DNA of 64,000 nucleotides, taken from an uncultured Clostridiaceae bacterium. GTDB taxonomy: Bacteria > Bacillota > Clostridia > Ch29. The notes beneath the pieces were generated by a model that had not been told where the DNA came from, did no database searches, and saw only the letters and a program-made list of their open reading frames with translations. The stretch covers positions 67,263 through 131,262 of the forward strand of contig CAZDSH010000001.1 in the NCBI GenBank assembly GCA_964508195.1, given 5' to 3'. A program made the position numbers and the translations under genes. Shown in pieces: positions 3,633 through 61,100 of the stretch (the stretch's first letter is position 1; the number at the start of each line of letters is the position of its first letter).

Positions 3633-4571
3633 TTAACCTAAAAGCGCATCGGCGAAAATGTCCCGATCGAAGGGGCACAGATCATCTATACCTTCCCCCA
3701 GGCCTATGTATTCTATGGGAATATCTAATTCGTTTTTTATTGCCAGCACGATACCACCCTTTGCGCTACCGTCTAATTTAGTGAGTATTATACCGGTAAT
3801 ATCCGCAACATTTTTAAACATCTTGGCCTGGGTAAGTGCATTTTGACCCGTTGTCGCATCCAGCACGAGGTAGGTCTTTTTTATACAGTCTGCGGCCTCT
3901 TTATTTATTATCCTTTGTATTTTTTTGAGCTCCTCCATAAGGTTTTTCCGGCTATGGAGCCTACCGGCAGTATCACAGATAACAATCGGTGTGCCCCTGG
4001 CCTTTGCAGCATTTAGCGTATCGAAAACCACCGCGGCGGGGTCTGCACCCTCCCGATGTTTTATGACCTTTGCACCGGACTTTTCGGCCCAGGCCTCCAG
4101 TTGTTCCGTCGCCGCGGCCCTAAAGGTGTCCGCAGCAGCAATGAGTACATCTTTACCCTTTTGCGTATAAAGTGCCGCCAATTTACCTACAGATGTGGTT
4201 TTTCCTACGCCGTTTACACCCACTATCAGCAACACTGTTGGTAAACCCTCATCAGTGCCTGAAACGCAGGTATCATCTTTAAGCATTTCTTTTATTATAT
4301 CCTTTAGTTCTTCCCTAACTTTTTCGCCGGTTATAGTCCTATCCCGGCGCATCCTTTCATCTAGTGTCTCTATTATTTTAAGGCCGGTGCTTACGCCTAC
4401 ATCCGCGGTAATTAGCACCTCCTCCAGTTCTTCTAACATCTCCGCATCCGTTCCTTTACTGAAGGATAGGACTCTATCCATCCTTCTTTTGATACCCTCC
4501 CTGCTTTTTCTAAGGCCCTCCATAAACTTTGGAATGAGCCCCACCCGTTCCTTTGGCATACTTTTGATCAT
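3633..4571 (-). CDS. ftsY: SRP receptor FtsY
   Basis: Short Firmicutes-type FtsY with an NG domain (GVNGVGKTT, DTAGR). Sits between smc and ylxM. Confidence 0.9.
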   Translation of the reverse strand: MIKSMPKERVGLIPKFMEGLRKSREGIKRRMDRVLSFSKGTDAEMLEELEEVLITADVGVSTGLKIIETLDERMRRDRTITGEKVREELKDIIKEMLKDDTCVSGTDEGLPTVLLIVGVNGVGKTTSVGKLAALYTQKGKDVLIAAADTFRAAATEQLEAWAEKSGAKVIKHREGADPAAVVFDTLNAAKARGTPIVICDTAGRLHSRKNLMEELKKIQRIINKEAADCIKKTYLVLDATTGQNALTQAKMFKNVADITGIILTKLDGSAKGGIVLAIKNELDIPIEYIGLGEGIDDLCPFDRDIFADALLG

Positions 4572-4575
4572 CCTC

Positions 4576-7500
4576 CTAGCTCACCATATCCTCAAGCTTT
4601 ATTGAAACCAACTTTGAAACGCCCTTTTCTTCCATAGTAACGCCGTACAAATTATTCGCAATCTCTATAGTACCCTTTCTATGGGTTATAACGACAAATT
4701 GTATATCCGAAGACAGTTTTTTTAAAAACGCACTAAATCTTTGGACATTGGTATCGTCAAGGGCGGATTCTATTTCGTCTAGAATACAAAAAGGTGACGG
4801 TTTTACCGATAGTATTGCAAAGAGCAGGGCTATGGCAGTGAGGGCTTTTTCACCCCCGGATAGGAGCGAAAGGTGTTGAAGTTTTTTACCCGGCGGTTGG
4901 GCTATTATATTGATCCCCGCTTCCAACATGTTATCATCGTCAGCAAGGTTCACCTGCGCCTTACCGCCGCCGAACAGCTCTCGGAATATTCTGCCGAAGC
5001 TGTCGTTTATGATAGAAAATTGTTTTGAAAATTGTTCTTCCATGGCACTCTGCATCTCGTTAATTATTTGGTTAAGGGCGCCTTTAGCATCCTCTAAATC
5101 CTTCCGTTGTGATGTGAGAAAGTCAAACCTGTCCTTTACCTTTTTGTACTCCTCAATGGCATTTAAATTTATATTACCAAAGCTCCTTAGCTTAGATTTA
5201 AGCCTTTTTATTCTGTTACGGGCAGCTTTTTCGTCCTCTATTTCATGTTGGTAGTCAAGGGCCTGTATACGGGTAACTTCGTAATCGTTCCACATCCTAT
5301 CATGGAAACTGTTAAGCTCCATATCCAATTTTGCCAATTGCATCTCATCCCCGTGCAACAACCTTTCTAATTCCGTTATTTTTTTATCCGTTTCTTTGCT
5401 CTCCTGTTCCCTTTCCTTTAATTGTTGTATATAGTTCGTTTTTAGTTGTCCCAACCTCGCTATTTCGACGTTATTGTTATCGGTTTTTATGATAAGGGTT
5501 TTGATATTTTGATCGATAGAATTTGCCTCATTTTCTATTCGTTTTATATTGGCCCTGTTTTCCCTTATCCTTTCCTGCTTGTTCAACAAAGAAGATTGTA
5601 GCCGTCCTAGGGACAAAAGCGTCCTTTGGAAACTTTCTTCCATATTTTCTAACCTTTGTTCCATCTTTGCCACTTCAACACGGCGGAGGGTTATCTGTTG
5701 TTTAATATTTTCACGATTTCGCTTCATCTCAGAATTTTCTTTCTGTAGCGTCTGTACTATTTCCTGTTCTTTTTTTACTTCTATTTCCTTACTTTTTATA
5801 ATCCTATCAATGCTATCCATCTCTTTTTGCATCCCGTAGTACTCTGCTTCTAGCTCCATCTTTTCCGTTTCCAAACGGGATTTAACGGCACCTTTCTCTA
5901 GGAGCTCTTTGTTGTTCGATTCTAACATTTCCTCCAGTTTAATACACTGCAGCTCCAGCTCATGATACCTTTGTGTCGTTTTAACTAGACTATGATTAAC
6001 CGCCCTTTCCGTAGCACAGAGGCTATGTAGCGATGTTTCTAGTTTGTTTACCGTATCCCCATTATATTTAACGGCTTCCTTTAGGGATTTTATTTCCCTT
6101 TTCCGTTGCAAAAGACCGGTCTCCTTACGGAAGTTACTTCCTCCCGTTATAGAACCCCCGGCATTTATCACATCCCCATCCATCGTCACAATTTTAAAGG
6201 CATAACCATAAACCCTTGCTATATTTATACCGTTATCCAAGGAATCCACAACTATTACCCTACCGAGTAGATTAGCTATAATATTTCGTATTTTTTTAGA
6301 ACAGCCCACAAGATCAGGGGCGGAGCCTATACTTCCTTTCATATCCAACGCTTTCTTTTCTTTTTCGGAAAGGTATCTAGGTTGTATAGAGTTTACGGGC
6401 AAAAAAGTTGCCCGCCCCAACTTGTTCGATTTTAAGTGCTCAATCGCTCTTTTGGCATCCCCTTCGGTATCAGTAATTATACTTTGTAGACTATACCCCA
6501 GAGCAATTTCTATAGCCCTTTCCAGGCCGTCCTTTACTTCTATAAGCCCGCCTACGGGACCTATTATGCCCCTTGAAAAATTATTATCTTTGTCGCAGGC
6601 TGTCATTAACGCTTTAACGCTCCTTGAATAGCCCTCGTGCTCGTCCTCCATCTGCATAAGAAGTTTTAACTTCGATCTATCAGAGTTTAAGATTGAACTA
6701 ACCTTTTTTAGTTTTCGTTCTAGATTGGCTCGTTCTGTGGCATGGGCACGCATTTTCCTTTGGAGCTCCTTTTTAATGTCCGTCTGTTCCCCTAATTCTG
6801 CTGTGATAGCATCGTATTCATTCCTATAGTTTGTATCTTTATCCCTTAGCCCTTCTATTTGTGTGGCTATATTATCTATCTCCCCCAGCAGTTTAACCTT
6901 ACGCCTATATGCAGCTTCCCTAAGGGCCCTTAGATTATTCTTTTCGTTATTCTTATCGGAGATAAAGTTAAGGCCTTCCCTTATCCTAGCCTGCATAGCC
7001 TCGGCCCTTTCCTGTTCTTTTCCTACCTGAAACCCTAAATAATCTAAATTAACCTGGAAGGAGTTAATTATCTTATTTTTGTCCTTTAACTGCGCCTCCA
7101 TATCCCTAATGCTCTGTTCCAGGCCTTCCTTTTCCCCCTTAGCTACGGCAATATCCCCTTCTATGCTTTCAAGTTCCCTCGTATGCATATTAATGCTATC
7201 CTCTTCGCTTTGTATCCTTTGTTTTAATACTTTTATTTCACCTTTTTTTATCTCCATCAAGTTAAGATTTTTAAACATATTCTCTTGATTCTCTTTAAGT
7301 TCTTCCTCCGTTTGCATAATTCTATTTTCCAGCATGGCGATATCCGTCTCCAAGCGGGTTTTGGCCTTCGTCCTGTCGGTGATACTGTCTCGAAGGCTCT
7401 CAAGACGTTGTAAAATGTTCTCCTTTTGTCTGTTAAGTTTCTCAATAGCCTTTACGAACATGCTAAGTTCAAGTCCCTTAAGCTCGGCCTTTACCGCTTT

Positions 7501-17132: not shown

Positions 17133-19214
17133 TTAACTACATATATATTCCCCGGCATCTATATATCCCCCTAGGAGGTTAAGGTATTCTTCCCCCTCTA
17201 GGGACAATCTGGTGCCCTTAGGTCCCCTGTGGATCACCACTAAACCGTATTGCGCCAATATACCTAACCTGTTTCGTATCATCTGTTCCGTCATCTTTAT
17301 CCGACCTTTACAACGCTGGGCGATACCCTTTCTGCTAAGGTAAACATCCCCCCTATCCTTTGCGTTTTTAAGTACCCCGAGGATCGTAGCCAACTCCTCC
17401 AGGGGCATTTCCCCCTCTATGGCCCTTATCACTTTCTCCCGGCGCATAAACCTATCCTTCGGCGCAAAGGGTAAATCCTTACTCCTTACAGGACCGTCGC
17501 CTACGATATGGTATAGATATTCGATTACGTTTTCCAATTCACGAATATTACCCGGCCAATCGTATTCCATAAATTCTTCCATAGCTTCCTCGCTTATTTC
17601 CATCGCCTCCCCCTTCGGAAACTTTTCGAGCATCTTTTCTATAAGTAGTGGTATATCTTCTTTATGTTCCCTTAGAGGCGGTATCCGTATAGGCAGCACC
17701 TTTAACCTATAGAACAGATCCTCCCTGAACTCTCCGGCACTGACAAGTTCTTCGAGGTTTTTGTTTGTAGCCGCGATGATCCTTACGTCGATGGGAATAA
17801 TTTTAGTGCCGCCGATGCGCAATACCTCTTTTTCCTGTAAGACCCTTAATAACCTTGCCTGTATTTTTAGGGAAGCATCCCCTATTTCATCGAGGAAAAT
17901 GGTTCCCTTATGGGCCTGCTCGAATAACCCCGCGTGTCCGCCCTTCCTCGCCCCGGTAAAGGCGCCTTCCTCGTAGCCAAAGAGTTCGCTTTCTAGAAGG
18001 TTTTCCGGGAGCGCTGCAAAACTCACCGCTACGAAGGGCCCGTATTGCTTGCCCGAGGCCTTGTGTATAGCATGGGCGAAAAGTTCCTTACCGATGCCGC
18101 TTTCGCCGAGTAAGAGCAAAGTGGAATTGCTCCTTGCCAATTTTCGCGCGATCTCCTTCGTTTCGACTATTTGTTTACTCTTGCCCACTATATTTGAAAA
18201 CCCATATTTAGAGGTATGGCCCCTTTTCATCAGATTCGCCCTTACTATATTCTCCATTTCAATTATTTCTGATAAGTCCTTAAATGTTATAATAACCCCG
18301 TTATTGACATCGTTTTTTATAATAGGCATCATCGTAAGGAGTATTTTTTTGCCCATTATTTCGTGTACTTTTCTATAAAGGCCGAAATTTTTACCCAAAA
18401 GGGCCTTCGCTTCAAAGTCCAATATATCGTCTAAATTTATTTCACCGACGTTTTTTTCGCCCTTTTCCGAAAACAACTTATTTGCATTCTCATTGCTAAA
18501 CATAACATTGCCGTCGCTGTCTATACCCACTATTCCGTCGTTTATGACGTTGAGTATTGTATGTAATTGTTTCATTATATTATCATTCGTTTCAAGGGCC
18601 TTTACCACTTTTTTGCCGGAATAAACGAAATCCTGTAAAAACCTGGCGGACAATAGGTTTGTCCTTTCATCGAGTATATCGAGCTTTATCATTATTTCGG
18701 TAATAGTAGTAAGATCTATTTTGCTAAAGCTTAAATCTATTATATTTTCCACATATTCGGGGACCATGTGGATCTCCCCCGTAGTTATTGCGTAATCCGC
18801 ATGTTGGGTAAACCTCTGCCCCGGGTAATAGGGATACATCCTTATATGGTTTATACCCAGCTCCTCAAGGAGGGATATGGAGTTTTCCGCAAGGTATTTA
18901 TTCACATCGACAAATAGCACGTCCTCCCCCTGGGGTATGCGGAGCACGTCTTCGAGTTTTGAATGGTTCAAAGATCTCCGGGCTACGAGTATTTCCGCCC
19001 GGGGGTCTATATATTTTAACGCTGTCTCTTTGAGGTATTCATGACATATAAGTACGAGGGTGTCGTAGATCTTTTCCTCGATACCCTCTAGGATAGAGTA
19101 TCCCTTTATCGCAACCTCGGGTCCTAAAAGATTAGTCAACTGGTTGATCACATTTTCTTTATGCTTTTCAGAACGGGTTATTATGGATAATCCAAATCGT
19201 GTAACATCTTGCAT
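17133..19214 (-). CDS. Sigma-54-dependent transcriptional activator (enhancer-binding protein): unknown N-terminal domain, PAS, AAA+, and an atypical C-terminal domain
   Basis: Central AAA+ sigma-54 interaction domain with Walker A (GESGIGKE), the GAFTGA motif (EGAFTGA) and a Walker B/arginine-finger region. PAS-like segment around residues 210-320 of the protein. The first roughly 200 residues are an unrecognised domain. The C-terminal roughly 110 residues lack the Fis-type HTH. Confidence 0.85.
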
Positions 19215-19471
19215 TTACTGTTTCACCTCCTTCCTTCTATATTATACCAGAGAGTTAACCGGTTTTAAAGGGTTTTAAAAAAATAACCTTTAAGACCCAA
19301 TAAAGCGTTCAGCCCCGTGGAAATTAACTCCATGAACCTTTGGTTTATTATACCCTATTTTACTTATACGACCTATTCTACGTATCCCTGTATGCCTAGG
19401 CCGTGTTTCCATAATGAATGTTTATAATCCATCCCCTTGAATGTTTCTCAAAAGTATCCCTATACATTAAT

Positions 19472-19487
19472 TGGCACGAGTATTGCA
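19472..19487 (+). promoter_or_regulatory. Sigma-54 (-24/-12) promoter TGGCACG-N4-TTGCA upstream of kamA
   Basis: TTGGCACGAGTATTGCA matches the RpoN consensus TGGCACG-N4-TTGCW exactly. It is divergent from, and adjacent to, the enhancer-binding protein gene. Confidence 0.75.
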
Positions 19488-19735
19488 CATTTACTAAGTT
19501 GCTGATCAGCAAACCTAAATAAGGTAAGGGATTCGTTAACGAAGGTTTAACGTTTTTATCGCTTTTTAAAAAAACTTTCCGTATTCTTAGGTCGCGGTAT
19601 AGCTTTGTTTAACCGATGCCCGGGGAGCCCGTTATTTCGGACTTTAACCTTTAATAATACGGAAATGAGCATAACATTGTAAATGCGTTATATATATAAA
19701 TAGTAGAATTTTTATCTAGATTAGGAGGTTAAAAG

Positions 19736-20998
19736 ATGGAAAATTCAAAATTAAGCTCAAGGGAAATATCCCTTCAAAGGGCGGATGTTTTAAAGAGTCG
19801 TATAGATCCTTATCTTGAAGCAAAGTTAGACATTCACTCCGGCTTGGATCAAAAAGATGAAATAAGGGCAAGGCAGGCTAGGATTAAAGAGATTATGGGC
19901 GCTAGCGAAGATCAGTGGAACGACTGGAATTGGCAAATAGATAACCGGGTAACGGATTCCGATACCCTTGCCAAATTTCTTGAACTAACTACTAAACAAA
20001 AGAAGGATATTGATGCTGTAGCAGCGAAGTTTAGATGGGCTATTTCCCCATACTTTCTATCTTTGATAGAACCTAGCGGGAATCATTATGAGCATCCTAT
20101 ATACTTGCAGTCCGTTCCCACGGGTCTGGAGCTCGTAGAAGGTATCGGTAGCGCAGATCCCATGGCTGAAGAGTTTACGAACCCTGCACCCTGCATTACC
20201 CGCCGGTATCCCGACAGATTGATTATAAACGTTACGAACCAGTGCGGAATGTACTGTCGCCACTGTCAAAGGAGAAGGAATATCGGAGAAGTGGATGCAC
20301 CACAACCTAAGGAGAAGCTGCAGGCGGCCGTAGATTATATTAGAAACACGCCGGAGATCAGGGACGTACTTATAACCGGCGGCGATCCTTTCACCTTCTC
20401 CGACGAGATGCTAGATTGGCTCCTTGGCGAACTTGATAGTATTCCCCACCTTGATTTTAAAAGAATTGGCACAAGGATGCCCGTTACATTACCCCAAAGG
20501 GTAACGCCAGAACTTTGTGATATGCTCAAAACACATCATCCTTTATTCATAAACTTACAATTTAACAGTCCTATGGAAGTATCCGAGGATTCCTTAAAGG
20601 CCTGCGAAATGTTAGCCGATGCAGGGATACCCTTAGGGAACCAGGCAGTGCTTCTAAGGGGCGTAAACGATCATCCCTTTGTGATGAAAAAGCTATGCCA
20701 AGAGCTGTTAAAGGCACGGGTAAGGCCGTACTATATATTCCACGCCAAGGGTGTAGTGGGGACTCTACACTTTAGGACTAGCGTAGATATAGGCATAGAA
20801 ATTATGGAACATCTAAGGGGTTATACCTCGGGGCTTGCTATTCCGACGTTCATCGTAAATGCCCCAGAGGGTAAGGGCAAAACGCCTATGCTACCCGAAT
20901 ACGTTATCTCCCATGGCAGGGATACCATCACTATAAGGACCTGGGAAGGCGAAATAATAGAGTATCCAAACAAAGATGCCGATGTAGAGTACGAATAA
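19736..20998 (+). CDS. kamA: L-lysine 2,3-aminomutase (radical SAM, PLP-dependent)
   Basis: 420-aa protein with the KamA-type CxxxCxxC motif (NQCGMYCRHCQRRR) and a full-length C-terminal domain. EpmB-type enzymes are shorter. Ribosome-binding site AGGAGGT. Confidence 0.85.
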   Translation: MENSKLSSREISLQRADVLKSRIDPYLEAKLDIHSGLDQKDEIRARQARIKEIMGASEDQWNDWNWQIDNRVTDSDTLAKFLELTTKQKKDIDAVAAKFRWAISPYFLSLIEPSGNHYEHPIYLQSVPTGLELVEGIGSADPMAEEFTNPAPCITRRYPDRLIINVTNQCGMYCRHCQRRRNIGEVDAPQPKEKLQAAVDYIRNTPEIRDVLITGGDPFTFSDEMLDWLLGELDSIPHLDFKRIGTRMPVTLPQRVTPELCDMLKTHHPLFINLQFNSPMEVSEDSLKACEMLADAGIPLGNQAVLLRGVNDHPFVMKKLCQELLKARVRPYYIFHAKGVVGTLHFRTSVDIGIEIMEHLRGYTSGLAIPTFIVNAPEGKGKTPMLPEYVISHGRDTITIRTWEGEIIEYPNKDADVEYE

Positions 20999-21102: not shown

Positions 21103-22140
21103 ATGAGAAAAAGACTAGCATTGTTGTTAGTGCTCCTATTTGCGTTTTCTACTATACTGGTAGGATGCACTACACCAGCAGACACCAATGGGGAAGATGA
21201 TGCACCGGCGCCGGTCCAAAAGCAACAGATCTCCATATTAACCGGTTCTACCGGCGGTACGTACTTCGCTTTAGGCGGGGCCATGGCCAATACTTGGAAT
21301 GAATACCTAGATAATGTACAGGTGACGGGCCAACCCAGCGGCGCATCCGTGGAGAACATTAACCGTCTCCATGCCGGCGAGGTAGAGCTTGGTATGTCTA
21401 TGAACAACATTGCCGACGATGCCTGGAACGGGGTAGGCGCCTTCCCGGGGGAACAACGGGGTTTTAGGACTATAGGCGTTATTTATCCCGAGGTTTATCA
21501 GGGCGTAGCTATTAAAGGGTCTGGCATTAAAACCCTCGAGGATGTAAAGGGTAAAAGAGTAGCCGTAGGCCCTGTTGGGAGCGGTACAGTAGTGATGACC
21601 GAGACTGTGTTCAATGAAGCGGGCATGTCCTTTGATGATGTAAAAGCAAACTATGACGGCTTTGGCGATGCTGCCAGCAAGATGAAGGATGGACACTTAG
21701 ATGCGGCCTTCAACGTATTAGCAGTTCCCGCCGCAGCGATACTGGATATACAATCGGATCGTGAAATAGAAATAATCGAAATAGGCGATGATCTATACGA
21801 AAAAGTTAACGCTAAGTTCCCCTATTTCAGCCAATATGTGATACCCGCTGGAACCTATGGGAATGAAGAGGACAAATTAACGGTAAACTGTGTTGCTGCA
21901 TTGTACGCGTCCCCGGATATGTCCGAGGATTTGGCCTATGACATAACGAAGGTATGGTTTGAGAAAACTGCCCATACCGCGGCAGCCCACGGTGCAGCCC
22001 AGTGGCTTGCAGACGAACTCGCCGCAGGGAATAAGGACGTCATGCTCGATGGCATAACGACGCCGCTACATGTCGGGGCCTATAAGTATTTCAAAGACAT
22101 AGGCGTAGACGTCCCGGATATGATTAAACCTATTGATTAA
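21103..22140 (+). CDS. TAXI-family TRAP transporter solute-binding lipoprotein
   Basis: Lipoprotein signal peptide with lipobox (LVGCTT). ILTGSTGGTYFALGGAMANTWN is the TAXI (TRAP-associated extracytoplasmic immunogenic) signature. Confidence 0.8.
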   Translation: MRKRLALLLVLLFAFSTILVGCTTPADTNGEDDAPAPVQKQQISILTGSTGGTYFALGGAMANTWNEYLDNVQVTGQPSGASVENINRLHAGEVELGMSMNNIADDAWNGVGAFPGEQRGFRTIGVIYPEVYQGVAIKGSGIKTLEDVKGKRVAVGPVGSGTVVMTETVFNEAGMSFDDVKANYDGFGDAASKMKDGHLDAAFNVLAVPAAAILDIQSDREIEIIEIGDDLYEKVNAKFPYFSQYVIPAGTYGNEEDKLTVNCVAALYASPDMSEDLAYDITKVWFEKTAHTAAAHGAAQWLADELAAGNKDVMLDGITTPLHVGAYKYFKDIGVDVPDMIKPID

Positions 22141-22293
22141 TCAATAAGGGATGAAGGCCGGGAACCGTACAGTCCCCGGCCTTCATAATTAATATAATAT
22201 TACATAGCCTTAAATGTAAAAGTAACGCCTAATTTATTTTTTTGGTTTTCATAGGAGATTCCTCTAGGTAATTTTAACATAGGAGGTAGGAAT

Positions 22294-24291
22294 ATGGCGG
22301 AAAGGCAGAAAGATGACAGCATTATATTAGACGAAATTAAACTGGATGAAGAAAAATCCGAAGAGATTTTAGCTAAATACGATCGGGAATTCGATTTCAG
22401 AAGGCTTAGCGGGCCCTTAGAGAAATTCGTTTTTTTATGTGCGGTTGCTTGGTCCTTGGCCCAACTTTACACTGCGGCCTTCGGCGTTTTCCCTTCAACA
22501 TTACAAAGGGCACCCCACGTAGGTATCGCCCTTGTACTTATTTATATATTGTACCCGGCTAAAAGGGGCAGCAAAAACAATAAAGTACCGTGGTACGATT
22601 TTGTATTTGCCTTCCTAGGTGTTGTAGTCTCTTCGTACCATGTGATTTATTATAAAGAGCTAGTTTGGCGTGCAGGGGTTTACACTACAACGGATATGGT
22701 AATAAGCGTTATTGCCGTCTTATTGATAATAGAAGCAACTAGAAGAATGGCTGGACCGGTCATCGTTTCCCTAGCATCCTTTTTCCTGCTCTATGCGTAT
22801 TTCGGCGATTATTTTCCATCCTTTATGGCCCATCACGGCCTAACTTTAAAGAGAATAGTAATATTCCAATGGATAAGCACCGAGGGTATTTTAGGTATAC
22901 CCATTCAAGTATCATCGACCTTTATATTCCTTTTTATGCTTTTTGCGACCTTTTTAAAGAAAAGCGGCATTGGGGATTGGATGACGGAAATAGCCGTAGG
23001 ATTAACGGGCGGCGCTATCGGCGGGCCTGCTAAGGCCGCGGTAATAGCAAGCGCAGCCCAGGGTACGATCTCCGGTAGCTCTGTTGCCAATACTGTAGGT
23101 ACTGGCTCCGTTACGATTCCCCTTATGAAGAGCATCGGCTACCGTAAAGAGTTCGCCGGTGCCGTTGAAGCAGCGGCCTCTACAGGCGGCCAGCTTATGC
23201 CCCCTATAATGGGCGCTGCAGCATTTATTATGGTGGAGTTTCTTAATATCCCCTACAGAACGATCGCTATTTCAGCGGCGATACCCGCAGCCCTTTATTT
23301 TACGGGGATATTTATAACGGTGCATTTAGAGGCAAAAAAGGCAGGCCTTTTAGGTATACCTAAAGAACGACTGCCGGATTGGAAACAGCTCGTTAAGAAA
23401 AAATGGTTCCTTGCCACGCCGATAGCGGGTATTGTCTACCTCTTGGTCAAGGGATACACTCCGATGCTGGCTGCTTTTTATGCCATTATACTGTGTATCG
23501 CTGCGTCAATGATATTGAAAGAAACCCGTATGTCAATAATGGATATTATTTCGGCCCTAGAGGAGGGGGCCAAGTCCGCCCTCCCGGTAGTTGTAGCCTG
23601 TGCCACTGCGGGTATAATAGTAGGCATAGTTACGTTGACGGGCCTAGGCATGAAGATGTCCGGCGGCCTTGTAAGATTAGCCGGAGGCAATGTCTACCTA
23701 ACTATGCTCTTTACGATGATAGGTTCGCTGATACTAGGTATGGGCGTTCCCACTACGGCAAACTATATCATCCAAGCAACGGTTTCGGCGCCGGCGTTAA
23801 TGGTCCTAGGGGTTCCGCCCTTAGCGGCCCATTTGTTTGTGTTCTATTTCGGTATAGTGGCGGATATTACTCCCCCTGTAGCCCTGGCAGCCTTCGCCGG
23901 TTCGGGGATAGCCCAATCGGACCCTTTAAAGACTGGATTCGAGGCCTTTAAACTGGGTTTTGCCGCATATTTAGTGCCCTATATATTTGCCCTATCCCCT
24001 ATCCTTGTATTGATAAGACCGGAAGGGCTTTCAACATGGGGCTTTGCCTTTAGCGTAATCCTCGCAATCGGTACTGCACTTATAGGTATGCTATGTATAG
24101 GCGGTTCGACTACTAATTATTTTGTAACCAATGACAAATGGTATGAACGTGTCCTACTCCTTATTGCAGGGGTTACTTTGATACACCCGAGCTTCCATAC
24201 AGACCTGTTCGGAGCCGTTGTGTTAGCTGGGGTTTGGTTCCTGCAAACAAGCCGGGTAAAAAAAAGGGCGGCAGCGGAAAAAAGCATATAA
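22294..24291 (+). CDS. TAXI-type TRAP transporter fused permease subunit (fused 4TM/12TM DctQM-like)
   Basis: 665-aa polytopic membrane protein of the TRAP fused-permease family, immediately downstream of the TAXI solute-binding gene. Confidence 0.8.
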   Translation: MAERQKDDSIILDEIKLDEEKSEEILAKYDREFDFRRLSGPLEKFVFLCAVAWSLAQLYTAAFGVFPSTLQRAPHVGIALVLIYILYPAKRGSKNNKVPWYDFVFAFLGVVVSSYHVIYYKELVWRAGVYTTTDMVISVIAVLLIIEATRRMAGPVIVSLASFFLLYAYFGDYFPSFMAHHGLTLKRIVIFQWISTEGILGIPIQVSSTFIFLFMLFATFLKKSGIGDWMTEIAVGLTGGAIGGPAKAAVIASAAQGTISGSSVANTVGTGSVTIPLMKSIGYRKEFAGAVEAAASTGGQLMPPIMGAAAFIMVEFLNIPYRTIAISAAIPAALYFTGIFITVHLEAKKAGLLGIPKERLPDWKQLVKKKWFLATPIAGIVYLLVKGYTPMLAAFYAIILCIAASMILKETRMSIMDIISALEEGAKSALPVVVACATAGIIVGIVTLTGLGMKMSGGLVRLAGGNVYLTMLFTMIGSLILGMGVPTTANYIIQATVSAPALMVLGVPPLAAHLFVFYFGIVADITPPVALAAFAGSGIAQSDPLKTGFEAFKLGFAAYLVPYIFALSPILVLIRPEGLSTWGFAFSVILAIGTALIGMLCIGGSTTNYFVTNDKWYERVLLLIAGVTLIHPSFHTDLFGAVVLAGVWFLQTSRVKKRAAAEKSI

Positions 24292-24333: not shown

Positions 24334-24368
24334 AAAAATAGTAACGGTTAAACCGTTACTATTTTTAT
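24334..24368. terminator. Bidirectional rho-independent terminator between the TRAP permease and rpmF
   Basis: Perfect hairpin AGTAACGG-TTAAA-CCGTTACT flanked by AAAAAT on one side and ATTTTTAT on the other. Confidence 0.7.
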
Positions 24369-58014: not shown

Positions 58015-60807
58015 TTATTGGATATTCCCGGCACATCTTTCACATATGCTGGGGTGTTCCTTTACGTTTCCTACTGTCGTACTAAAATTCCAGCATCTTT
58101 CGCACTTGTGTCCCTCGGCGTGATTAACCATAAGGCTTAAACTTTCCAACTCCTCGCCCTTGATAGCCCCTTGGCCCGCTTCTTCACCGGGCGGGTTAAC
58201 CTTTACCTGGGAAACTATAAATAAGGAAGGCAGCTCCTTCTCTAAGGGTTTCAAGAATTTGTAAAGCTCATCGTCCGTATAAAGTTCTATTTTAGAATCC
58301 AAAGAATGACCGATTACCTTGTCAGCTCTGGCCTTTTCCAGTGCTCTTCCCACCTCGTACCTGATTTCTAATATTTTTTGATACTTCGTTTCTAATTCCT
58401 TATTCAAAAGTGCCGGTTCAGGCTCCGGGAATTCAACTAGTTGGACGCTGGCCGGTCTAGAGGCTGCATCCCCGGGCATATATCGCCATATTTCTTCTGC
58501 GGTGAAGGACAAAACCGGTGCCACAAGCCGTACAAGTTTTGATAATAACCGATATATCACCGTCTGCGCCGCCCTTCTTTCTAGCGAATCCCCTTTACAG
58601 GTGTACAGCCTATCTTTTATTACGTCGAGATAGAAGTTGCTCATGTCCACTACACAAAAATGATGCATCGCATAAAACAGTATATGAAATTCGTATTCCC
58701 TATAAGCGTCTACTACCTTTTCCAGCAATTTCTCTCCCTTATGAAGGGCCCATTTATCTAAATCGGCTAAATCGTCGTATTCGACCATATCCCTATCGGG
58801 GTCAAAATCGTACAGATTGCCTAACATAAACCGCGCGGTATTCCTTATCTTTCTATAGACCTCAGATAATTGTTTCAATATCCGGGGGGATATACGTATA
58901 TCCGTTTGATAATCCGCTGAGGCAACCCATAATCTTAATATATCTGCGCCGTACTCTTTTATAACATCCATGGGATCTATGCCGTTACCTAGGGATTTGG
59001 ACATTTTTCGTCCTTCGCCGTCTACTACAAATCCATGGGTTAACACTTCACGATAGGGTGCTTTTCCTCTAGTAGCCACTGCGGTTAATAGCGACGATTG
59101 GAACCATCCCCTGTGTTGGTCGCTACCCTCTAGGTACATAGTAGAGGGCCATTCCAAATCCGGCCATGTTTCCAATACTGCGGCATGACTCGAACCTGAA
59201 TCGAACCACACATCCATAGTGTCTGTCTCTTTCCTAAAATTGTTTGCACCACAATGTTCGCATTTGATATCTTCAGGGAGTATATCCTTTGCTTCTTTTT
59301 TAAACCATGCATCGGAACCCTCTGCAGCGAACAAATCCCTTACGGCGTGGATAGTATCGTCATTTATTATATGGTGACCACATTCGTTGCAATAGAATAT
59401 GGGAATAGGCACTCCCCATACCCTTTGCCGTGAGATACACCAATCATCCCTATCCCTTACCATATTGCTTATTCTTTCCTCTCCCCAATGGGGTATCCAT
59501 TTTACATTTCCTATAGCTGCAAGGGCTTCATCCTTAAAGCTCTCCACCGACGCGAACCATTGCTCCGTAGCCCTGAATATAACCGGCCCTTTGCAGCGCC
59601 AACAATGGGGATAAGAGTGCGTCATGCTAGAATGGGCAAACATAGCACCTATCTCCACAAGATCTTCAACTATCACATCGTTAGCCTTTGCATAGTACAT
59701 CCCTTGGTATTTACCCGCCGATTCAGTGAAATACCCTTTATCATCCACTGGATTCAAAGCTGATAGCCCGTACTTCATCCCGATTAAGAAGTCCTCTTCA
59801 CCGTGTCCCGGCGCAGTATGCACGCATCCGGTACCCTGCTCCAACGTAACATGGTCCCCTAATATTACAATTGAGTCCCTTTCTATAAAGGGATGCTTGC
59901 AGATTAACCCTTCAAGCTGCTTTCCGGCAAACTCAGCCAGTACCTTGTAATCATCAAACTTACCTAATTCCTTAATCTCTTCGGCCTTATCCTTAGCCAC
60001 AACATAATAGGCATCCCCCATCTCCATCAAAATATATTGGAAATTTTCATTAAGGGCGATTGCAAGGTTAGCGGGTAGCGTCCAGGGCGTTGTAGTCCAA
60101 ATCATAACATAGGCTCTACTAAGATCGTCTATCAAACCGTTAAACAATCCCTTGTCATCGGATACAGGGAAGTTAACGTATATTGAGTGGGTCCTATGAT
60201 CGCTATATTCTATCTCCGCCTCGGCTAGGGCTGTTTCGCAGCTAGGGCACCAGTACACCGGTCTTAAACCCTTATAGATATAACCCTTTTTAGCCATTTC
60301 GCCGAACACTTCTATCTGTTTTGCCTCAAACTGCGGTTTAAGCGTAAGGTAAGGGTTATCCCAATCGCCTCTGACCCCCAACCGTTTGAACTGACCCCTT
60401 TGTTTATCCATATATTTAAGCGCATAATCCCGACATAGTTGCCTGAACCCTACTACGGTTTTATCGTGTCTGTTTATACCTAAGGATTTTATTACTTGGG
60501 TTTCTATAGGCAGCCCATGGGTATCCCATCCGGGTACATAGGGACAATGATAGCCGTCCATTGATTTGCTTTTTATTATAATATCCTTCAATATTTTGTT
60601 AAGGGTTTGCCCTAGGTGTATATCACCATTAGCATAGGGAGGGCCGTCATGTAATATGAATTTTTTATTACCTTTTTGTTTTTGAAGGTTCTTCTTATAA
60701 ACGTTTTCCTTCTCCCAAAAGTCTATGATTTCCGGTTCCTTTACAGGCAAGTTAGCCCTCATCGGAAACTTTGTTTTTGGTAAATTTAATGTTTTCCCAT
60801 AGTCCAT
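58015..60807 (-). CDS. ileS: Isoleucyl-tRNA synthetase
   Basis: 930-aa protein with HLGQ (the HIGH motif), KMSKS, and C-terminal zinc-binding Cys (CERCWN...CERC). Confidence 0.95.
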   Translation of the reverse strand: MDYGKTLNLPKTKFPMRANLPVKEPEIIDFWEKENVYKKNLQKQKGNKKFILHDGPPYANGDIHLGQTLNKILKDIIIKSKSMDGYHCPYVPGWDTHGLPIETQVIKSLGINRHDKTVVGFRQLCRDYALKYMDKQRGQFKRLGVRGDWDNPYLTLKPQFEAKQIEVFGEMAKKGYIYKGLRPVYWCPSCETALAEAEIEYSDHRTHSIYVNFPVSDDKGLFNGLIDDLSRAYVMIWTTTPWTLPANLAIALNENFQYILMEMGDAYYVVAKDKAEEIKELGKFDDYKVLAEFAGKQLEGLICKHPFIERDSIVILGDHVTLEQGTGCVHTAPGHGEEDFLIGMKYGLSALNPVDDKGYFTESAGKYQGMYYAKANDVIVEDLVEIGAMFAHSSMTHSYPHCWRCKGPVIFRATEQWFASVESFKDEALAAIGNVKWIPHWGEERISNMVRDRDDWCISRQRVWGVPIPIFYCNECGHHIINDDTIHAVRDLFAAEGSDAWFKKEAKDILPEDIKCEHCGANNFRKETDTMDVWFDSGSSHAAVLETWPDLEWPSTMYLEGSDQHRGWFQSSLLTAVATRGKAPYREVLTHGFVVDGEGRKMSKSLGNGIDPMDVIKEYGADILRLWVASADYQTDIRISPRILKQLSEVYRKIRNTARFMLGNLYDFDPDRDMVEYDDLADLDKWALHKGEKLLEKVVDAYREYEFHILFYAMHHFCVVDMSNFYLDVIKDRLYTCKGDSLERRAAQTVIYRLLSKLVRLVAPVLSFTAEEIWRYMPGDAASRPASVQLVEFPEPEPALLNKELETKYQKILEIRYEVGRALEKARADKVIGHSLDSKIELYTDDELYKFLKPLEKELPSLFIVSQVKVNPPGEEAGQGAIKGEELESLSLMVNHAEGHKCERCWNFSTTVGNVKEHPSICERCAGNIQ

Positions 60808-60811
60808 TCGT

Positions 60812-61100
60812 TACCACCTCAATCGTTTTTTTAGAAAATAAAAAAGTCCCTTTATATATAAAGGGACGGGCATCGCCCGCGGTACCACCCTGTTTGGCTG
60901 TAATACCCGCTTTATTTTAGCTATTGTATCGGATAGCACCGGCGGGGCTTACTGTTTATACCTTTCAGCCCGCTGCTCACGAGGGATTTTCACTATTATA
61001 CGTTACCACATCCCACCATACCTGTGGCTCTCTGTCAACGGTTTAATAGATACTCTTCTCGATCATCGCTACTTCTACTGTATATTTGTGTTACGAAGAT
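60812..61100 (-). ncRNA. T-box riboswitch leader of ileS
   Basis: The minus strand contains the T-box antiterminator sequence CAGGGTGGTACCGCGG. It is followed by the terminator GTCCCTTTATATATAAAGGGAC plus TTTTTT. A stem-I AGAGA motif lies upstream, and an AUC (Ile) triplet is present in the specifier region. Confidence 0.75.

Follow-up and report, generated by a model that had tools for sequence, protein, structure and literature searches.

The element TTGGCACGAGTATTGCA (positions 19471 to 19487, plus strand) is very probably a sigma-54-dependent promoter that drives a glutamate 2,3-aminomutase-type gene (eam) together with the genes for a TAXI-family TRAP solute-binding protein and a fused TRAP permease, and that is run by a divergently encoded enhancer-binding protein (EBP). 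Throughout the text, "the window" denotes the full 64-kb stretch of DNA that was examined. It was the comparative evidence that decided the acceptance of a sigma-54 promoter at this position; to judge from the sequences compared, the promoter is real and evolutionarily conserved, and it represents an ordinary kind of bacterial switch. The general understanding of sigma-54 control is left unchanged. Two features are modestly unusual: the EBP belongs to a winged-helix family with an uncharacterized sensor domain, and a conserved operator-like palindrome lies at the start of the sigma-54 promoter's transcript. The features of the region are as follows.

17133 to 19214, minus strand: EBP gene, 693 amino acids (Pfam PF00158 with 222.8 bits against a cut-off of 20.2, plus AAA_lid_14 and PAS)
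19241 to 19269, minus strand: putative sigma-70-type promoter of the EBP gene, TTTAAA, 17 nt, TGgTATAAT (extended -10; 10 of 12 consensus positions plus the TG motif)
19261 to 19298, unstranded: candidate upstream enhancer (UAS) module 1, GGTT-N6-GGTT-N10-AACC-N6-ACCC (conserved block in the alignment)
19335 to 19396, unstranded: tentative, diverged second enhancer-like module, AACC..GGTT..GACCTATTC..CCCTGTATGCC (-137 to -76)
19471 to 19487, plus strand: predicted sigma-54 (-24/-12) promoter (motif, matrix score, and conservation)
19496 to 19499, plus strand: predicted transcription start, about 11 to 13 nt past the C of the -12 GC (sigma-54 promoter geometry)
19498 to 19735, plus strand: long predicted 5' leader of about 238 nt, with an indel-prone middle and a 3' part of about 75 nt that is highly conserved in the nearest relatives
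19501 to 19510, unstranded: 10-bp operator-like palindrome GCTGATCAGC, at about +3 to +14 (conservation)
19736 to 20998, plus strand: eam, encoding a glutamate 2,3-aminomutase-type radical SAM/PLP enzyme of 420 amino acids (TIGR04368)
21103 to 22140, plus strand: TAXI-family TRAP solute-binding protein gene (TIGR02122 with 274.9 bits; PF16868)
22151 to 22186, plus strand: G+C-rich hairpin, stem of 12 bp, not followed by a T tract, directly 3' of the binding-protein gene (sequence inspection)
22294 to 24291, plus strand: fused TRAP permease gene of the DctQM type, with DUF3394 (TIGR02123 with 734.6 bits; PF06808)
24339 to 24367, plus strand: terminator-like hairpin, TAGTAACGG-ttaaa-CCGTTACTA, followed by TTTTT (sequence inspection)

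A preliminary description of this DNA had reported an exact-consensus sigma-54 promoter at 19472 to 19487, about 250 nt from the downstream start codon and about 260 nt from the start of the EBP gene. Both the motif and the distances held. The sequence TGGCACGAGTATTGCA on the plus strand matches TGGCACG-N4-TTGCW exactly. Within its context, cattaaTTGGCACGAGTATTGCAcattt, TGGCACG occupies positions 19472 to 19478 and TTGCA positions 19483 to 19487, and the GG doublet (19473 to 19474) is separated from the GC doublet (19485 to 19486) by 10 nt. The site is intergenic and oriented toward the downstream operon, with 248 nt to the eam ATG (19736) and 257 nt to the EBP ATG (19214). From the standard geometry of sigma-54 promoters, transcription would start at 19496 to 19499.

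The exact pattern occurs a single time on the two strands of the 64-kb window, where 0.01 occurrences were expected, and it was matched in 1 of 100 dinucleotide shuffles. When up to two mismatches were allowed, five matches were found in the window compared to 5.2 expected; since this relaxed pattern is no commoner than chance, the exact site alone is exceptional. A weight matrix was built from the 10 Bacillus thuringiensis sigma-54 promoters listed in PMC4428206, which themselves score 19.5 to 26.1 bits. It yielded 20.9 bits for the site, the top value in the window, followed by a match of 15.2 bits, 5.7 bits lower. The maxima of 30 shuffled windows averaged 14.7 bits, with the highest at 22.6 bits. 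As at least 1 of these 30 windows scored as high as the site, the motif taken alone, without the comparative data, is strong but no proof. The second-best matrix match, TTGGCATAGCTTTTTCA at 20685 to 20701 on the minus strand, lies antisense within the aminomutase gene, has no -12 GC, and is probably due to chance.

Conservation was evaluated by searching 185,579 species-representative genomes for the aminomutase, which returned 80 loci. An EBP homolog was located upstream and divergent in 9 of them, and all nine carried TGGCAY-N5-TTGCW, with at least 10 of 12 positions matched, upstream of the aminomutase gene. No such site was found in a sensible position at the roughly 65 aminomutase loci without a nearby EBP, and two loci with the same eam-TAXI-DctM operon (L008 and L010) had neither the EBP nor the element. 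An alignment of the intergenic regions of 10 loci showed that almost all of the sequence has diverged except for three conserved islands. The first comprises the extended -10 promoter of the EBP gene and the GGTT/AACC repeat module; the second is TTGGCAY-N4-ATTGC, in which TTGGCA and TTGC were invariant; and the third is the 10-bp palindrome. Beyond the aligned loci, the element was present in L082, L085, L157, L164, L211, and L212. In total, TTGGCAY-N5-TTGCW is kept, amid diverged flanks, in 16 distinct loci where an orthologous EBP accompanies an aminomutase gene, and it persists on metagenome contigs as well. The divergent activator-target arrangement that had been proposed was borne out in the same way, with a genuine EBP to the left of the element and the element retained in each of the orthologous EBP-aminomutase loci that were examined.

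The element is also kept where the orientation of the EBP gene has changed. In L082, L085, and L157, where the EBP orthologs are 62 to 64% identical, the gene order is EBP, eam, TAXI, permease, with the EBP gene co-directional, and the spacer between EBP and eam still holds TTGGCAC(G/A)AAATTTGCT or TTGGCATGTTTTTTGCA. In the nearest relatives, L211 and L212 (EBP 91 to 93% identical), TAATTGGCATGAGTATTGCA is kept in an intergenic alignment that is 74% identical overall. EBP orthologs of 66 to 69% identity were additionally found without an adjoining aminomutase gene, at 4001 to 6067 of L209 and 4001 to 6022 of L210. These genes adjoin a CoA-disulfide-reductase/rhodanese gene, and neither a -24/-12 site nor the palindrome was found within 4 kb of them. 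The pairing of EBP, promoter, and eam is therefore common, not universal, which tells against our best explanation. Aminomutase homologs of 59% identity that are followed by TAXI and fused permease genes, with no EBP, were observed at about 6001 to 11360 of L021 and L022, which derive from a Thermoanaerobacteraceae MAG and from Vulcanibacillus. The presence of the enzyme-transporter pair without an EBP indicates that this pairing is older than its sigma-54 control.

The EBP is a genuine sigma-54 activator. It is composed of an N-terminal alpha/beta domain (residues 1 to 204), a PAS domain (about 216 to 320), a sigma-54 AAA+ domain (342 to 584), and a C-terminal winged helix (about 600 to 675). 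The GAFTGA loop is intact at residues 417 to 422, the Walker motifs read GESGIGKE (370 to 377) and DEIGD (442 to 446), and the AAA+ part of the AF2 model resembles FlrC, FleQ, NtrC1, and PspF (TMt of 0.87 to 0.89). A C-terminal Fis-type HTH is common, not obligatory, in NtrC-type activators. In the EBP, the Fis-type HTH (PF02954, HTH_8) gave no match even at an E value of 5. Its C terminus, encoded by 17133 to 17430, produced weak matches to the winged helices of CggR_N, HrcA, and Rrf2 and was modeled as three helices plus a beta-wing; by this model, the protein ends in a winged helix and not in a Fis-type HTH. The alpha/beta fold of the N-terminal domain, encoded by 18603 to 19214, was predicted confidently, and the domain matched no Pfam family and, at a significant level, no PDB entry.

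Homologs of about 680 amino acids with the same architecture are widespread in Firmicutes, and the putative recognition helix TEQMIRxRL is largely conserved across this large family. Each of three EBP paralogs that share this architecture is followed by a -24/-12 site of its own, which has G-rich repeats upstream of it. The protein defines a widespread, uncharacterized Firmicute EBP family in which a new N-terminal domain is joined to PAS, AAA+, and winged-helix domains. Its best-scoring named NCBIfam model was PrdR (NF041552), with 384 bits over residues 168 to 583. PrdR is the sigma-54 activator of the proline reductase genes of Clostridioides difficile; the EBP scores far under the equivalog threshold of 795 and is matched in its PAS and AAA+ parts only, and the two activators have different target operons and flanking DNA motifs. 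The UAS of the PrdR type is given as TGT-N10-12-ACA in the text of a survey of sigma-54 control in Clostridiales (PMC6615313).

The EBP is presumably cognate to the promoter, and the operon presumably depends on RpoN. No RpoN box or sigma-54 domain (rpoN/sigL) was found within the 64-kb window or in the fetched loci, which was counted against this explanation; some Clostridiales are without SigL, according to the text of the survey (PMC6615313).

Upstream of the promoter, the repeats of module 1 start at 19261 (GGTT), 19271 (GGTT), 19285 (AACC), and 19295 (ACCC), about 10 bp apart, and the module spans -211 to -174 counted from the first T of TGGCAC. A clean module of this kind is present in one copy only in the window, another point against our best explanation. 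A looser form, GG[GT]T, 3 to 8 nt, GG[CGT]T, 6 to 14 nt, A[ACG]CC, was detected in 10 of 12 orthologous regions, with a second copy at -120 to -135 in L001, L002, L004, and L012, and GGKT/AMCC words were enriched 4-fold (94 versus 23 expected). The sequence at 19335 to 19396 aligns with the right half of the relatives' module 2 (AACCCATTATCAACCTATATGCC), and the two nearest relatives share its GCCTATTC and its CCCTGT. The assignment of 19241 to 19269 as the putative promoter of the EBP gene is consistent with its TGnTAYAAT block, which is kept in 10 of 10 aligned loci. The repeat module is also found in loci with a co-directional EBP gene; therefore, the EBP gene's own promoter does not explain it. 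We infer that the GGTT/AACC repeats form an enhancer bound by the EBP. Clostridial UAS sites are mostly located 100 to 250 bp upstream, as stated in the text of the survey (PMC6615313), and the distances of the modules fit this range. Two partial, degenerate copies of the enhancer-like region were noticed within the leader: one at 19545 to 19574, which is 77% identical over 30 nt to 19254 to 19283, and TAACCTTTAA at 19645 to 19654, a repeat of 19284 to 19293. They may be the remnant of a local duplication.

In the mechanism that we propose, RNA polymerase carrying sigma-54 would bind the -24/-12 element and form a closed complex that does not open by itself. The divergently encoded EBP would bind the GGTT/AACC repeats about 75 to 210 bp upstream. 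Upon sensing a small-molecule signal, it would form an ATPase ring, reach the polymerase by DNA looping, and open the promoter. Transcription would then begin at about 19496 to 19499 and traverse the leader (about 238 nt) to enter the operon.

The palindrome GCTGATCAGC is present once in the window, 13 nt past TTGCA. It was invariant, and found once each, in 9 of the 10 aligned loci, with L009 keeping only the 8-bp core CTGATCAG. Across loci, it follows TTGCW by 13 to 15 nt, or by 20 nt in two of them, and a more distant clade has the variant AGCTGGCCAGCT, with a symmetric change of the center. It was absent from L007, L008, and L010, all of which are without the EBP, and from the targets of the paralogous EBPs; among the loci compared, it was confined to those with an EBP-eam pair. 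A metagenome scan for the promoter together with the palindrome returned at least 120 stretches. Among the matches listed, seven had a neighboring EBP or aminomutase homolog and are real instances, whereas none of the other 113 had such a neighbor: 93 fall within long open frames, for the most part on contigs rich in G+C, and seem fortuitous, and the remaining 20 are located outside such frames. With only these seven real instances among the matches listed, the promoter-palindrome pair was rejected as the mark of a wider regulon.

To our knowledge, none of the cre, CodY, Rex, LexA, and Fur boxes fits the palindrome. Because its flanks do not covary into a stable RNA stem, it is best interpreted as a DNA operator for a dimeric protein. 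Most likely, GCTGATCAGC is a protein-binding operator that would add a second layer of control, and it could be bound by a repressor or by the EBP through its own winged helix. A fuller proposal would make the palindrome, as GCTGATCAGC or AGCTGGCCAGCT, a dedicated protein site, either a docking site or brake for the non-Fis winged helix of the EBP or the operator of a repressor, and the operon gated by it perhaps a beta-glutamate uptake-plus-isomerization module; in this complete form, we consider the proposal doubtful. Either reading of the palindrome, if true, would constitute an unusual architecture for sigma-54 control. Methanogens living in the same anaerobic-digester habitats have beta-glutamate as an osmolyte.

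A different division of roles would leave the promoter real but have the EBP bind the palindrome and not the GGTT/AACC repeats, as a promoter-held activator or a self-brake with no distant enhancer. Palindrome, EBP ortholog, and promoter were found together in 16 of 16 loci, compared to 0 of 3 same-type operons lacking the EBP. The EBP is the sole regulator gene conserved in the cluster, and its winged helix belongs to a type that recognizes dyad sites in dimeric form. Furthermore, a change in the center of the palindrome, AT versus GC, goes along with one at residue 650 (Asn versus Arg/Lys) in the putative recognition helix. This covariation, however, is seen in just two clades, which also differ in their upstream repeats. 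Located at +3 to +14, a site gives no room for looping and lies under the footprint of the open complex, where repressors bind, and TEQMIRxRL is largely kept in paralogs whose targets lack the palindrome but have G-rich upstream repeats. The repeats in front of eam, in turn, are situated at the usual distances of a Clostridial UAS. Taken together, we regard binding of the EBP at the palindrome in place of the repeats as rather unlikely and retain the upstream repeats as its candidate enhancer.

It is distinctly improbable that the palindrome acts as RNA, in the form of a short 5'-terminal hairpin that shields the mRNA from a 5' exonuclease. In most loci, the palindrome starts 2 to 5 nt after the predicted transcription start, the copy in the window gives a 5-bp stem capped by a GAUC loop upon folding, and the variant AGCUGGCCAGCU is able to form a stem of 4 to 5 bp. 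However, only 3 bp are formed in most relatives, where the flanking bases are unpaired, and the core is conserved as sequence, with no reliance on compensatory changes. Shuffled sequence is as structured as the complete leader (z = +0.74 for folding energy). A DNA operator thus remains the preferred reading of GCTGATCAGC.

The distance of 248 nt between promoter and ATG is long compared to known cases and was counted against our best explanation. Validated B. thuringiensis promoters are located 32 to 55 nt from the start codon, with one at 152 nt (PMC4428206). In most relatives of the locus studied here, the spacing is 111 to 122 nt and the leader about 100 nt. The extra middle part of the leader is lineage specific and indel prone, and L211 is without about 90 nt of it. 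The last 75 nt or so, 19660 to 19735, are nearly identical in L211 and L212 despite the intergenic identity of 74%; no promoter, ORF, or known RNA accounts for this conserved stretch. Several candidates for the leader were rejected: a known RNA element (no Rfam family at gathering or relaxed thresholds, and a folding energy that does not surpass that of shuffles), a leader peptide (no credible ORF), and a mobile or repeated insert (no second copy in the window or any locus). A consensus scan likewise returned no plus-strand sigma-70-like site between 19352 and the eam ATG, and two weak plus-strand sites upstream of 19352 were not conserved. A sigma-70 promoter for the operon was rejected as well, with none between the -24/-12 site and the ATG.

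That the match arose by chance in A+T-rich intergenic sequence, with the operon run by an ordinary sigma-70 promoter, is scarcely credible: the two-mismatch pattern is at chance frequency, at least 1 of the 30 shuffled windows reached a comparable matrix score, and the leader is long enough to hide a promoter and strongly conserved over its 3' 75 nt in close relatives, but the exact match had an expectation of 0.01, 16 distinct loci keep the element although their flanks have diverged, aminomutase loci lacking the EBP lack it too, and no plus-strand sigma-70-like site was found from 19352 to the eam ATG, the two weak ones farther upstream being unconserved.

The gene at 19736 to 20998 had been called kamA, the name of lysine 2,3-aminomutase genes, in the preliminary description, and this name did not stand: by its sequence, its product is a KamA-family enzyme that belongs with the glutamate 2,3-aminomutases and not with the lysine type. 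It scored 654.2 bits with the NCBIfam model TIGR04368, only marginally above the cut-off of 650, while AblA (TIGR03820) reached 469.2 bits, under its cut-off of 525.4, and the arginine aminomutase model 347.3 bits, also under its own cut-off. K338 and N375 align with Asp293 and Asp330 of the lysine 2,3-aminomutase 2A5H. Lys and Asn in place of this lysine-binding Asp pair are the glutamate-type diagnostic of the SFLD curators (PMC3965090). The PLP lysine is retained, with K382 aligned to K337 of 2A5H, and the CxxxCxxC cluster motif is formed by C170, C174, and C177. A likely misannotation is thereby corrected from lysine to glutamate aminomutase.

Both TRAP genes scored far over the cut-offs of TIGR02122 and TIGR02123, which identifies their products as a TAXI-type TRAP transporter. 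Neither a plus-strand terminator nor a convincing internal promoter was found between the aminomutase, TAXI, and permease genes, so that the linkage of the transporter to the same promoter is reasonable, as is the view that the three genes form one operon behind the -24/-12 site. The hairpin at 24339 to 24367 is the probable end of this operon; it was missed by the terminator scan because its A+T content is too high for the scan's G+C rule. The hairpin at 22151 to 22186 was not called by the terminator scan and may process or stabilize the mRNA such that more binding protein is made relative to permease. The coupling of the aminomutase to a TAXI-TRAP transporter points to scavenging of beta-glutamate or glutamate or to osmolyte synthesis. 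The role of the operon would be either nutritional, with beta-glutamate or glutamate taken up and isomerized, or osmotic, with beta-glutamate made as an osmolyte. The physiological role of glutamate 2,3-aminomutase in bacteria is poorly understood, and the locus provides a well-supported regulatory assignment for this enzyme. Expression is predicted to be governed by a ligand-sensing sigma-54 activator and to be coupled to the TAXI-TRAP transporter, which turns the nature of the inducer into a testable question.

The closest precedent, which is experimentally supported, is the kamA/KamR system of B. thuringiensis, in which kamA has a -24/-12 promoter that requires SigL and the adjacent PAS-containing EBP KamR, as related in PMC4428206 (Zhang et al. 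2014). In both cases, a KamA-family gene is located behind a -24/-12 promoter (TTGGCATAACTATTGCT in B. thuringiensis) and adjoins its own PAS-AAA+ activator. According to the same account, the B. thuringiensis kam locus encodes a lysine 2,3-aminomutase, has a co-directional activator gene and a second, sigma-K promoter used in sporulation, and places its promoter 38 nt from the start codon. The locus described here differs in the glutamate type of its enzyme, the coupling to a TAXI-TRAP transporter, the divergent activator, the leader of about 240 nt, and the palindrome after the promoter; the likeness noted here is one of architecture. Enrichment of COG1509 has been noted among predicted sigma-54 targets in Bacilli.

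As described in the text of the Clostridiales survey (PMC6615313), sigma-54 activators of this order fall into 39 EBP groups with the promoter consensus TTGGCATNNNNNTTGCT, which the site described here shares, and they are mostly one-component sensors adjoining a single target operon, as is the case here. Most EBPs treated there carry a Fis-type HTH (335 EBPs), in contrast to the winged helix and the Pfam-unmatched N-terminal domain of the EBP studied here, and the main text of the survey mentions no aminomutase or TRAP target (PMC6615313).

In other Firmicutes, eam/ablA genes are controlled by Na+ (DUF1646) and c-di-AMP riboswitches (PMC9337991). Riboswitch control of eam links the enzyme to beta-glutamate as an osmoprotectant. 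These cases resemble the present one in that the same enzyme family is placed under dedicated control. Their control, however, is RNA based and linked to osmotic stress, whereas an activator-dependent promoter is predicted here and the leader holds no known riboswitch. A c-di-AMP riboswitch (101 bits) was also detected at 5757 to 5891 of L026, directly 5' of a glutamate-aminomutase homolog from a different Clostridia lineage.

Within the window, the EBP-eam island is set in a housekeeping stretch, with ffh, smc, fab genes, plsX, and fapR on one side and ackA, recG, pknB, priA, and ileS on the other. An ordinary T-box leader (127.8 bits) was found at 60859 to 61075 on the minus strand, 5' of the isoleucyl-tRNA synthetase gene (58015 to 60807, minus strand).
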